NCBI GenBank assembly: GCA_016718315.1
Contig: JADKDV010000011.1
Location: 5,337 to 69,336, forward strand
Source: Candidatus Obscuribacter sp.
Lineage (GTDB): Bacteria > Cyanobacteriota > Vampirovibrionia > Obscuribacterales > Obscuribacteraceae
Reading direction: 5' to 3'
Length of the DNA: 64,000 bases
Shown here: one piece after another, positions 8,485-14,881 of the stretch
Layout: every line of letters begins with the position of its first letter
How positions within the stretch are numbered: position 1 is the stretch's first letter
The notes under the pieces: model-generated
Databases searched by the model: none
Told to the model about the DNA's origin: nothing
What the model saw: the letters and a program-made list of their open reading frames with translations, nothing else
Program-made: the position numbers and the translations under genes

Positions 8485-9279
8485 ATGAACAGAGGGGCTA
8501 TAGCGAAATACATAGATGAGCTGCCGGCAAACGGCCGTTATACGTTTTGTCGTGCAGAGCTTCAGCAAAGATTTGCCGTGTCCGATGCGGCGATTAAGCT
8601 CGCTTTGAATCGGCTGCAGAAGAACGGTCGGGTCGTTAGCCCACGACGTGGATTCTATGTCGTGGTACCGGAAGAATACAAGCATAGCGGAGCCCCTCCG
8701 CCGACTTGGTTCATTCATGCACTCATGAATGATTGGCAGTCGAATTACTACGTCGGGCTGCTTAGCGCCGCCGAGATACATGGCGCCGCGCATCAGCGTC
8801 CTCAAGAATTTCAAGTAATGTGCGATCGTGCACATCGTATGATTGACATAGGACGCCACCGAATTCGATTCTTCAAAAAATGGAATCTAAGTGAAGTGCC
8901 TACCATACAACAAAAGACGCCCACCGGATTTATGAAAGTATCTACTCCCGAAGCAACTGCATTGGACCTCGTAAGGTACTACCAAGACGCTGGATACTTC
9001 GGAAATGTGGCAACCGTAATTTCGGAGTTGGCCAATAAAATGAACGCGCACAGTTTAGTTTCCACTGCAAAGCTTCGGGTAGAACTGGCGGTCGTACAAA
9101 GGTTAGGTTATTTGCTCGAACTGGTTGAGAAACAGAAACTCGCTGATTCCTTGCACAATTGGCTTTGCACGCAGTCACCACGTGTGACTAGCCTCCGAAC
9201 AGATTTGGAGTTGGCAGAATCGTCCTTGAATCGACGTTGGTTACTCTATATAAATGAAAAAATAGAGGTGGACCAATGA
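8485..9279 (+). CDS. abiEi: AbiEi-family antitoxin / wHTH transcriptional regulator (type IV TA)
   Basis: The N-terminal wHTH-like segment (GRYTFCRAELQQRF...LNRLQKNGRVVSPRRGFYVV) is typical of AbiEi. The stop overlaps the AbiEii start (ATGA at 9276-9279). The start is uncertain: the ORF track begins at 8404, and I prefer ATG 8485. Confidence 0.65.
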   Translation: MNRGAIAKYIDELPANGRYTFCRAELQQRFAVSDAAIKLALNRLQKNGRVVSPRRGFYVVVPEEYKHSGAPPPTWFIHALMNDWQSNYYVGLLSAAEIHGAAHQRPQEFQVMCDRAHRMIDIGRHRIRFFKKWNLSEVPTIQQKTPTGFMKVSTPEATALDLVRYYQDAGYFGNVATVISELANKMNAHSLVSTAKLRVELAVVQRLGYLLELVEKQKLADSLHNWLCTQSPRVTSLRTDLELAESSLNRRWLLYINEKIEVDQ

Positions 9280-10094
9280 TACCGCGCACGGTGCTCACGG
9301 TTTGGCGCACGCACCATGCTCCTTGGCCGGGCGATGATCAGGTTGAGCAAGATCTTGTAATTTCTAGGGCTCTCGTCGAATTGTATTCGGATAAATTGAT
9401 AGGAGACAGCCTCGCATTTCGTGGCGGAACTGCCTTGAATAAGCTGTTCCTGCCGTCAATGAGCCGCTATTCAGAAGACATTGATCTGGTCAAGGTCCGC
9501 GCTGAGCCTATAGGACAGGTGATGGGAAGAATCAGGGAGTTGCTTACGCCGTGGCTCGGAAAACCGAAATACAAGCAGACCGAATCGATGGTCACATTGC
9601 ATTTCTCGTACACGGCAGAGCCACCGCTGGAAACCCCTATGAAGCTAAAACTCGAAATAAACACCAGGGAGAATTTCGCTGTTTATGGATACGAGAGACG
9701 TTCGCTTGAAGTCTCGTCTGAATGGTTTTCTGGAAAAGCAGATATTAAAACATTTGCTCTGGACGAGCTGCTAGGCACAAAGCTTCGAGCGCTTTATCAG
9801 CGAAAAAAAGGACGAGATCTGTTCGATCCCTGGTTGTGTAATTCATCGTTAAAGGTTGATCCGGAGCGAGTCGTAAATAGCTTTGTTCAGTATATGAGCC
9901 ACAACAACATCAAGGTATCGCGCGCAGAATTCGAAGAGAACCTTTTAAAAAAGCTGGCAGATCCGTCCTTCCGCGATGATATACGCCCGCTTATCCGTTC
10001 AGGTGTAACCTACGATGTCGATGAGGCAGGCCGATACGTGTTGGATGAAATCGTAAGTCGACTGCCTGGCAAACCTTGGAAGCGCCTGGTCTAA
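9276..10094 (+). CDS. abiEii: AbiEii/AbiGii-family nucleotidyltransferase toxin (type IV TA, DUF1814)
   Basis: VEQDLVISRAL...AFRGGTALNKLF...RYSEDIDLV matches the conserved AbiEii N-terminal nucleotidyltransferase motifs. It is translationally coupled to the upstream gene. Confidence 0.8.
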   Translation: MIPRTVLTVWRTHHAPWPGDDQVEQDLVISRALVELYSDKLIGDSLAFRGGTALNKLFLPSMSRYSEDIDLVKVRAEPIGQVMGRIRELLTPWLGKPKYKQTESMVTLHFSYTAEPPLETPMKLKLEINTRENFAVYGYERRSLEVSSEWFSGKADIKTFALDELLGTKLRALYQRKKGRDLFDPWLCNSSLKVDPERVVNSFVQYMSHNNIKVSRAEFEENLLKKLADPSFRDDIRPLIRSGVTYDVDEAGRYVLDEIVSRLPGKPWKRLV

Positions 10095-12544: not shown

Positions 12545-13918
12545 CTATGATTTCCGCTGCCACACTGTTTGCCATGCCTCAAACTCTGAAGGGCGCACTC
12601 GGTAGCGAGCAATATTACCTTCATGTAGAGCTAGGATCTCGTCTTCAGCGACGCGTTGGAATTCATCCCGGTCGTTGCTTTCTAAATTGTCTGACGTCCA
12701 TGCCTCTAGATATCTAAGTGCAGCTGCGCGATCGAATTGGTCCTTTACGATAGTGCCGACCACTTCGCGGAGAGAATCTCGATACTTGAGACGAAACGGA
12801 TCGGGTTCACCCAGTGACTGGCGAACTGCTTTATAGCGTTCAGCTGAGCGTTTATAAGCCCAGAGATAGATTTCCGTGAGTAGTTCTACTTTGTTTAGTT
12901 CGTATACTGCAAGAGTTGCCTGCACATATAAGTCTTTTGGCACATCGGCAAACGTAAGCGGAACTAGATTATGCTTGATCAGTGGAATGTTGGCTGCCAG
13001 GCGTGAAACTCGTTTGTTGACGTGCTCAAATGGTTGAAGGTAGGGTAAATGAACCATGATAAAGAAAGACTGTTCAAAAGGATCTGTGATTGCCGTTGCT
13101 GTATCTAAGATTTGGTTGAAGCATTCCTCGATAATCTGTGGTACTGCAAGCGGTCGAAACGATGATTGCCCAATTTCAACTTCAATTTGACGAAGGCTTC
13201 CTGCTGCCTTCGGATCCGTTAAAAGGTTGTTTGCCAAAACACCGTGCAAGTTCCGAATAGTTAGTCTGTTGAATCCTATCTCGTCAGCGTTATCAACAAG
13301 GAATTCAATCGCATCTTTATGATTTAGGATCATTTGCGCTTCAAGCCGGTCTTTACCCTGTGCCTCTTTGCCAAACGCGATCAATCTTTTTGTGTCTAGA
13401 ATGCTATATGTATTGCCTTCCAAACGACTTGAATTCCAAGATAGATCAATGAGCAAGCGATCCAAGATGTTTCGCGCGTATGTACCTGCCGGTTGGAATC
13501 CAATTTTGACTGCGCTTGTTTCATGAAGTTGGGTGCGCTGCGCTTCCGAAAGATAAGCACTTTCGTTTGGTCTATAAGAATCCAGAAAGTCCCTGTTGTA
13601 ACCAACTATCGTCCTTAAAAGCAGCGGACGCGAAACATTTTTCTGAATGTCTCGCGCTGCCCGAGACAAAGGCACCACTTCTGGTTCTATCTCTGTACTG
13701 ACGTTGACCGATGCCGGAAAGTATTTCATTCCACGACGTTGGCCTTCAGTTAAGGCTCTTCCTTGCCCTGCAAGATAGCGCAGTCGATATTGCAGCGTGC
13801 GGTGAGGGAGACTGCTGCCACTGGCAGCGCTTATAAATTTGAGGTCAACCCCATTAGGGTGAGCCTTAAGTATCTCCTCGATAACTTTAAGATCTTCTTC
13901 TGGTATCTGTTTAGCCAT
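12545..13918 (-). CDS. wHTH + Fic-domain protein with a degenerate Fic active-site motif
   Basis: The N-terminus is wHTH-like. A Fic_N-type SSRLEG motif ([ST]xxxE[GN]) is present. The core reads QPFEHVNKRVSR where the canonical motif is HPFx[DE]GNGRxxR, so the catalytic His is replaced by Gln and the Gly residues are lost. Confidence 0.65.
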   Translation of the reverse strand: MAKQIPEEDLKVIEEILKAHPNGVDLKFISAASGSSLPHRTLQYRLRYLAGQGRALTEGQRRGMKYFPASVNVSTEIEPEVVPLSRAARDIQKNVSRPLLLRTIVGYNRDFLDSYRPNESAYLSEAQRTQLHETSAVKIGFQPAGTYARNILDRLLIDLSWNSSRLEGNTYSILDTKRLIAFGKEAQGKDRLEAQMILNHKDAIEFLVDNADEIGFNRLTIRNLHGVLANNLLTDPKAAGSLRQIEVEIGQSSFRPLAVPQIIEECFNQILDTATAITDPFEQSFFIMVHLPYLQPFEHVNKRVSRLAANIPLIKHNLVPLTFADVPKDLYVQATLAVYELNKVELLTEIYLWAYKRSAERYKAVRQSLGEPDPFRLKYRDSLREVVGTIVKDQFDRAAALRYLEAWTSDNLESNDRDEFQRVAEDEILALHEGNIARYRVRPSEFEAWQTVWQRKS

Positions 13919-13954
13919 GAGTCAGTCTGTTCTGCATGAGCTTTAACCGTTATA

Positions 13955-14074
13955 TAGGCAATAATGTGTCACTTTAGGCAATTATATACCACTTTAGGCA
14001 ATATCATATCATATTAGGCAATATTGTAAGGCTTTAGGCAATTATAAGGCGCATTAGGCAACTATGTGTCCTTC
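13955..14074. repeat. Six direct repeats with an exact 20-bp period, core TAGGCAAT(W)AT, upstream of the Fic-like gene
   Basis: TAGGCA starts at 13955, 13975, 13995, 14015, 14035 and 14055. This is 37-156 nt upstream of the minus-strand ATG at 13918. Confidence 0.85.
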
Positions 14075-14212: not shown

Positions 14213-14881
14213 TCAATTCGTTTTGACATTGGGGTGTTTATGCAAAAGCGGGCTGTAGATTATGCTGTCGATTTCATAACTGGCCAGCCTTTTAATTTCA
14301 CTGATCGTCAACCACAAAAACATGCGGGGATTGACCGCTTTGTAGTCTTCGTCGCAAAGGCTGGCATTGATAAAAGTGGTGGCGCCTATGGTGTTCTGAC
14401 CATAGCCGCTATGGATGTGACCAAAGATATGATATCGAGGCGGCTGCTCCATTGTGTCGAGCTTCTTGCGTAATTCTTCGCAGCCAACGCTCTGCGGCGG
14501 ACCGTACCTACCATCTGTCACATCCATGATGCCGTAAGGTGGTCCATGGGTAACTAAAATATCCAGACCATCAGGGATAATGTCCCAGACTGGCTTTATG
14601 TCCTCGCCGCGGTCTTTCATGTAGTACCAGTTAAAAAACGTAGGCGTCCAGGGACTTGCCCATATCTTTAAGCCAGCATATGTATAAGGCTCGTCGACTA
14701 GTATTTGTGCATGGGTCAAAATCGTCTTTGCCAGCGGCAACTCGCGCTCAAGTATTTTGTCGTGGTTGCCTGGTGTCACGATACATTGGTCATACAGATG
14801 GCGATTTCTTCCGAGAAAGGCGTTAAATTCAATAAGTTCATTCATACTGCCGACCGTCGTCAAATCGCCAGCAATTATCAA
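14213..14881 (-). CDS. Calcineurin-like metallophosphoesterase; N-terminal DxH motif lies in another frame (frameshifted)
   Basis: Motifs IIAGDLT, GNHD and GHIH are present. ATG 14945 opens MTKIATTSDVHS (the DxH motif) in a different frame, 12 nt after the upstream gene stop. The frames switch around 14896-14915. Confidence 0.7.
   Translation of the reverse strand: MIIAGDLTTVGSMNELIEFNAFLGRNRHLYDQCIVTPGNHDKILERELPLAKTILTHAQILVDEPYTYAGLKIWASPWTPTFFNWYYMKDRGEDIKPVWDIIPDGLDILVTHGPPYGIMDVTDGRYGPPQSVGCEELRKKLDTMEQPPRYHIFGHIHSGYGQNTIGATTFINASLCDEDYKAVNPRMFLWLTISEIKRLASYEIDSIIYSPLLHKHPNVKTN

Follow-up and report, generated by a model that had tools for sequence, protein, structure and literature searches.

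What are six short, evenly spaced DNA boxes doing immediately upstream of the gene for a winged-helix/Fic-like protein? The window analysed here is the whole 64-kb stretch, positions 5337-69336 of a 78.5-kb contig from the 6.09-Mb genome (16 contigs) of a Candidatus Obscuribacter sp., and the gene lies on its minus strand. On the plus strand the word TAGGCA begins at 13955, 13975, 13995, 14015, 14035, and 14055. This exact 20-bp phase, first described in a sequence-only reading of the DNA, is confirmed by the start positions, by Tandem Repeats Finder (period 20, score 86), and by a repeat search of the array (start-to-start spacings of 20, 20, 20, and 20). The six copies, at about 13955-14074, take the form TAGGCAA(T/C), five of them reading TAGGCAAT and the sixth TAGGCAAC on the plus strand. 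The same reading placed the end of the array 37 nt upstream of the minus-strand ATG, and this holds: the gene-nearest box starts at 13955, 37 nt from the first base of the ATG (13918), leaving 36 nt between them. Its division of each unit into a conserved TAGGCA core and a variable half stands for the core and needs amending for the other half, where conservation runs 2-3 nt past TAGGCA. In gene orientation the conserved sequence reads (A/T)(A/T)TTGCCTAA(A/T)G; outside it, the 20-bp units vary freely. The array is a real, non-random feature of this DNA.

The six 20-bp units occupy 13952-14074 on the minus strand, and the array occurs once in the genome. Box 1, the farthest from the gene (14055-14062), reads GTTGCCTA and lies in the unit ACATAGTTGCCTAATGCGCC. 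Box 2 (14035-14042; unit TTATAATTGCCTAAAGCCTT) has a TATAAT before it, and is followed by box 3 (14015-14022; unit ACAATATTGCCTAATATGAT) and box 4 (13995-14002; unit ATGATATTGCCTAAAGTGGT). Box 5 (13975-13982; unit ATATAATTGCCTAAAGTGAC) reads ATTGCCTA and stands directly after a perfect TATAAT. Box 6 (13955-13962; unit ACATTATTGCCTATATAACG), the nearest to the gene, also reads ATTGCCTA; its core is at -43 from the ATG, and it probably lies within the 5' untranslated leader. All six boxes, likewise on the minus strand, are direct, and their core, TGCCTA, is non-palindromic.

Within the genome the array stands alone. TAGGCAAT occurs seven times in the 64-kb window, five of these inside the array, which is also the sole cluster of more than two TTGCCTA words in the 6.09-Mb genome. 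No phased pair of boxes with at most one mismatch was found elsewhere in those 6.09 Mb. The sequence-only reading had called for a genome-wide search and named a dispersed repeat as one outcome that would speak against a regulatory array; the search came out negative for such a repeat, the phased array occurring only at this locus. The 457-aa winged-helix/Fic gene is likewise present in a single copy. One other TTGCCTA pair at a spacing of about 20 bp exists in the genome (contig C1, near 1066388; same strand, 21 bp apart). It was considered as a second array and, being without further family features, was taken as chance.

The adjacent gene (P0001, 12545-13918, minus strand) encodes a 457-aa protein consisting of an N-terminal winged helix, a disordered linker, a class II Fic core, and a C-terminal helical domain. 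Pfam recognises the Fic domain alone (PF02661, residues 219-311, 28.8 bits against a cut-off of 24), and no NCBIfam model matches the protein. An earlier AlphaFold2 model, from the shallow alignment A1, had a pLDDT of 57.5; winged-helix folds topped its fold search, in which there was no match at E ≤ 0.001. The model from the deeper alignment A4 (67 sequences) has a mean pLDDT of 92.3 and a pTM of 0.75. Residues 1-70 (13709-13918, minus strand; pLDDT 81-94) are predicted to form a winged helix-turn-helix, with three helices (7-19, 26-32, and 39-51) followed by a two-strand wing (55-58 and 65-68). HTH_20 was found in 11 of 29 family members and a BlaI/MecI-type repressor family in seven. A Foldseek search with the A4 model returned FICD as the best match (E = 1.7e-7), followed by BT_2513, CccR (7XUX), SoFic (3EQX), and CbFic2.

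The class II inhibitory-helix motif [ST]xxxE[GN] is present as SSRLEGN (13412-13432, minus strand) and is invariant or nearly so in the family; S163-S-R-L-E167-G168 aligns with TVAIEGN of FICD. The Fic motif itself is degenerate (QPFEHVNKRVSR, 13001-13036, minus strand). It departs from HxFx[D/E]GN[G/K]RxxR with its catalytic histidine, having instead Gln295, which is nearly invariant in the family and aligns with the catalytic histidine of FICD. The family consensus is QPF[D/E]DVNKRVSR. Residue 299 (13022-13024), at motif position 5, is a histidine in the window protein (QPFEH), and nearly all relatives have an aspartate there (QPF[D/E]D); among the members of alignment A1 this change is found in this protein only. 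As modelled, the core is a class II Fic/Fido fold with its inhibitory helix in place and its catalytic histidine replaced. The Fic and inhibitory motifs are invariant across phyla, which argues that the Fic domain is under selection. Lacking the histidine, it may act as a ligand sensor, an effector, or an oligomer holder.

The family to which this protein belongs is large, with more than 8000 matches in a 90%-identity collection and at least 759 clusters at 50% identity (E ≤ 1e-30). We fetched 80 loci encoding relatives of 53-75% protein identity, drawn from Pseudomonadota, Acidobacteriota, Melainabacteria/Cyanobacteriota, Rhodothermota, Gemmatimonadota, Chloroflexota, Deinococcota, Armatimonadota, Latescibacterota, Myxococcota, and Thermodesulfobacteriota; the best named match among them is from an Obscuribacter sp. 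(75% protein identity). Phasing was assessed by counting identical 6-mers within 220 bp upstream of the gene at 77 orthologous loci, which represent 10 or more phyla. Self-matches numbered 119, 295, and 161 at lags of 19, 20, and 21, respectively, 217 at lag 40, and 109 at lag 60, against about 5-15 at other lags, and control stretches put through the same 6-mer lag analysis gave no peak. Against 823 control windows, 49 of the 77 loci score above the 99th percentile by a strict exact-match measure; the score of the window is 24. A search for conserved neighbours across the 80 loci and the window found no gene other than the Fic gene clustering in more than seven loci. Further, TGCGYATA-N11-13-TGCGYATA was found 12 times in seven other genomes of 4-7 Mb, each time directly upstream of a family gene.

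Most loci from Pseudomonadota and Acidobacteriota have TTGCGCATA boxes or the complement, ordered + - - + + + - and placed at about -126, -113, -93, -76, -57, -36, and -23. The core of most relatives, TGCGCA, is a palindrome, and it is the flanks that give each box a direction. All boxes are direct in arrays of the Melainabacteria clade and at a few further loci (L050, L057, L066, and L077). At one locus (L030, positions 1-66), the contig end upstream of a family member carries six exact 10-bp repeats (CAACTTTGCC) and no 20-bp boxes; these may be a different type of array or an assembly artefact. The design of the array is retained at 55-60% protein identity across phyla. To judge from this comparison of sequences, the phased array is a trait of the wHTH/Fic(Gln) family and travels with the gene.

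Box type follows protein phylogeny. On the protein tree, TGCCTA boxes occur only in one well-supported clade, whose six rows include that of the window, and other clades have TGCGCA, TGCGTA, TGCGCG, TGCGGA, or TGCGTC/TGCGCC boxes. A member from the same bacterial family with 62% identity has six direct TGCGCGTAAA boxes. The sister clade at 75% identity, L006/L094, shows a strict alternation of TTGCGCAAAG and TTGCCTAAAG with a 40-bp super-period (L006, 3795-3920); this array has the look of an intermediate between the two types and points to array growth by duplication of two-box units. Within the window's own clade, conservation is confined to the boxes, with TTGC unchanged at every 20-bp step and variable spacers. 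The number of boxes varies too, from six in the window to eight in L086, at least eight in L091, five to eight in L092 and L093, and 13 in L087, an 81%-identical relative whose phased TTGCCTAAAG boxes span 7717-7960. TGCCTA and TGCGCA clades share one recognition helix, RTLQYRL, which is nearly invariant though the boxes differ. A search of this helix for residue changes that could account for TGCCTA versus TGCGCA thus came up empty, leaving the wing or helix 2 as candidates for the specificity determinant.

The protein tree is discordant with taxonomy: proteobacterial clades contain rows from Chloroflexota and Deinococcota, for instance. The gene is also patchily distributed, being found in none of five other genomes of the genus and in two of 13 other genera of the family, and in this genome it is an accessory island gene. 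Mobile-element genes are neighbours at several loci: an integrase and a relaxase at L086, transposases at L087, L089/L090, and L094, and integrases at L091. L087 also has, 1.5 kb downstream and amid transposase fragments, an HTH gene and a second Fic gene, this one canonical (Fic_N plus Fic). Members of the family were found on 32 plasmids, and a search among phages gave one weak partial protein match only.

An alignment of 30 loci reveals where the boxes stand relative to the promoter. TTGATA, 17 bp, and TTTAAT preceded by TGn together constitute a sigma-70-type promoter, and the full consensus reads CTATGCGCAA .. TTGCGCATAG nn TTGATA n TTGCGCATA nAnGTGn TTTAAT TGCGCATAG .. CTATGCGCAAC AAAGG .. 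ATG. At these loci, the spacer holds one box, the expected start site coincides with another, and a third, inverted, lies between the start and the ribosome-binding site. Repressor sites in the spacer, at the start, or before the ribosome-binding site are expected to repress transcription. For the window, the candidate -10 hexamer is TATAAT (TGGTATATAAT, 13981-13986, minus strand), identified by its match to the consensus; TGGTATATAAT also precedes one box in the relatives L087 and L006/L094. Its -35 equivalent is weak, with a 15-bp spacer. An alternative promoter-like site, CTTACA, 16 bp, and TATGAT after TG, lies inside the array (14003-14030, minus strand). Both window candidates are consensus matches only. 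A third arrangement, with TTGCCT as the -35 and a flanking TATAAT as the -10, was ruled out, the spacer being 9 bp or 29 bp. With either putative promoter, the boxes cover the promoter or stand downstream of it.

We propose that the six boxes are the protein's own operator, which we consider likely, and, with somewhat less confidence, that the effect of the protein on its own promoter is repression. A cooperative operator array, with autoregulation by the adjacent winged helix, had been put forward in the sequence-only reading. It is favoured by the comparative evidence: the co-travel of array and gene across phyla, their co-variation by clade, the uniqueness of the array per genome, and the embedded promoter all suggest autoregulation. 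That the protein itself is the binder, that it binds cooperatively, and that it represses are all three points that we infer. In the proposed mechanism, one winged helix of the 457-aa protein would read each (A/T)(A/T)TTGCCTAA(A/T)G box. The 20-bp step corresponds to two helical turns, about 68 Å, which would place all protomers on the same face of the DNA. Neighbouring 50-kDa protomers could touch at 68 Å, and it is for this reason that binding would be cooperative. With the promoter inside the array, occupancy would shut off transcription. Cooperative occupancy would keep the protein scarce, and the result would be a tightly self-limited, stand-alone, horizontally mobile one-gene module. A regulator that has itself as its only target needs some further output, which counts against the operator reading, as does the near-invariance of the recognition helix among proteins with different boxes. 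As a unit of gene plus sites found in many phyla, the switch would be of a real but not unprecedented kind.

Fic proteins have been studied as AMPylating toxins and as regulators. To our knowledge, self-repression via a fused HTH has been shown for two Fic proteins only, CccR and SoFic. HTH-Fic fusions were noted, and their autoregulation guessed, by Kinch et al. 2009 (PMC2686095). CccR of Yersinia pseudotuberculosis has a C-terminal HTH and a canonical Fic motif (H192), AMPylates FtsZ, and represses its own promoter via AGATAATCAT-N26-ATGATAATCT, an operator of two 10-bp inverted repeats, 26 bp apart, that lies upstream of the start codon and is bound by a dimer (PMC9755527). Like CccR (PDB 7XUX), a structural neighbour of its model (Foldseek E = 3.4e-6), the window protein combines a class II Fic domain, an N-terminal inhibitory helix, and a DNA-binding domain in one chain. 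Unlike CccR, it has its winged helix at the N-terminus and glutamine in place of the histidine, and its array has six direct boxes at 20 bp (5-13 in relatives) rather than a palindromic dimer operator. SoFic of Shewanella oneidensis binds 100 bp upstream of its own start codon (bioRxiv 10.64898/2026.07.09.737422), and DNA binding by CbFic2 of Coxiella burnetii is coupled to its oligomeric state and activity (PMC10628234). In both SoFic (PDB 3EQX) and CbFic2, as in the window protein, a Fic fold is joined to a winged helix. There, however, the winged helix is C-terminal, the canonical histidine is present, and the proteins are active AMPylases/deAMPylases, and neither has been described with a phased multi-box array.

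The motif itself recalls a subfamily of Doc. Clade D2, with the motif Qx[F/Y]x[D/E][G/V]NKR, comprises 45 sequences, usually single-domain, for which function and regulation were not given (Khater & Mohanty 2015, PMC4454073). The family shares with this clade the His-to-Gln replacement and the Doc-like NKR, and its consensus, QPF[D/E]DVNKR, fits the motif. In contrast to clade D2, the window protein has a histidine at the [D/E] position and three domains, including the N-terminal winged helix and C-terminal helical domain that mark a family of at least 759 clusters. Its overall fold is that of a class II Fic protein such as FICD and not the small Doc fold. A literature search found no publication on the regulation of the wHTH/Fic(Gln) family, and a search for the box words returned primers and unrelated sequences only. 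By analogy, the array-gene unit would work like the self-repressors CccR and SoFic. New in comparison with these two would be the N-terminal winged helix, the lack of a catalytic histidine, the phased operator of 5-13 boxes, and the promoter interleaved with it.

Other systems in which the neighbouring gene's product binds cooperatively to phased short sites, direct or mixed in orientation, over a promoter are plasmid iterons with RepA, parC with ParR, and the omega heptads of pSM19035. Their binders are unrelated to the window protein, and the replication or partition partner genes are absent here. The sequence-only reading had offered, as its alternative, an iteron-type replication or partition site left over from a mobile element. 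Six units of 20 bp do resemble iterons, which are direct repeats of 17-22-bp sites in constant phase; the centromere-binding protein AspA is among the weak fold matches to the winged helix; and the family occurs on the 32 plasmids and, at other loci, beside integrases, relaxases, and transposases. Most loci, however, are on chromosomes of 4-6 Mb, and conserved Rep, ParA, or ParM genes are lacking around the gene in the 80 loci and the window, where the array gene has a metallophosphoesterase and a matrixin/TPR protein as neighbours and no ParA/ParM-type NTPase. The 22-kb plasmid pLA6_011 carries repC and repA/repB as a separate module about 9 kb from the Fic gene, which keeps its own boxes and promoter words. 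The boxes interleave with the -35 and -10 elements and extend almost to the start codon, and the intergenic region has no DNA match among plasmids. The chromosomal loci, the lack of Rep or ParA nearby, and the separate repABC module on pLA6_011 make an origin or a centromere-like partition site very improbable. Binding of the boxes by another host-encoded factor, or their action as RNA in the 5' leader, would suit box 6, and perhaps box 5, which are downstream of the candidate -10 and so may be transcribed. Against this, the array accompanies the gene across phyla and onto plasmids, and it co-varies with the protein. The presence of boxes in both orientations in most relatives fits recognition of double-stranded DNA and counts against RNA, for which there is also no Rfam match and a predicted fold worse than that of shuffled sequence (z = +2.55); we regard either version as very improbable. 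Copy number differs among close relatives, and the 40-bp super-repeat of L006/L094 points to duplication of units, as would be expected of a neutral tandem duplication (minisatellite) with no function. Yet conservation within each unit is restricted to a box of 8-11 bp, the spacers having diverged, a pattern that refutes the minisatellite reading; the persistence of the same design across phyla at 55-60% protein identity also speaks against it, and we regard it as next to impossible.

The neighbourhood of the gene bears on another reading. A metallophosphoesterase gene just upstream (14213-14881, minus strand) matches PADLOC PDC-S10 at 196 bits; the match begins at profile position 33, and the ORF has TTG as its start codon. 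An AbiEi/AbiEii type IV toxin-antitoxin pair lies at 8404-10094 on the plus strand (PADLOC, 310 and 335 bits), and the 457-aa protein has weak PADLOC matches to PDC-S04 and to SoFic (33 bits for the latter). With AbiEi/AbiEii, PDC-S10, and the Fic-like gene, the region from 8.4 to 14.9 kb looks like a small defence island. The phased sites might chiefly be a docking platform or switch that templates an oligomer and sets the state of the Fic-like domain, with the operator role secondary; release, by phage or other stress acting on the DNA for example, would free the effector. Such a platform would be compatible with autorepression, and we consider it rather unlikely. The variable box number (5-13 in close relatives, with the phase kept) and the defence-island setting are compatible with it. 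So are the invariance of the Fic and inhibitory motifs across phyla, the switching of CbFic2 activity by DNA binding via dimerisation (PMC10628234), and the requirement of SoFic dimerisation for both DNA binding and AMPylation (bioRxiv 10.64898/2026.07.09.737422). On the other side, the domain lacks the catalytic histidine, and promoter overlap alone suffices to explain the conservation of the boxes. We are similarly doubtful that the phased array also templates a one-faced filament of the protein, making the module a defence or addiction device. In such a filament, box number (5-13 in the window's clade) would set the count of parked protomers, and the His-less, Doc-like Fic domain would pass from idle to active or sensing, or back, as the protein leaves the DNA or assembles on it.

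Read as the operator of the winged-helix/Fic gene, the single-locus array would explain an odd repeat of this genome. It also draws attention to a large, uncharacterised branch of Fic proteins that lacks the catalytic histidine and has kept every other active-site and inhibitory residue. In this branch a stereotyped multi-site operator would spread with its gene by horizontal transfer. The array would provide a defined DNA ligand with clade-specific variants, suited to footprinting, specificity swaps, and structures of protein-DNA complexes, and such a ligand may offer a handle on the role of the His-less Fic fold.
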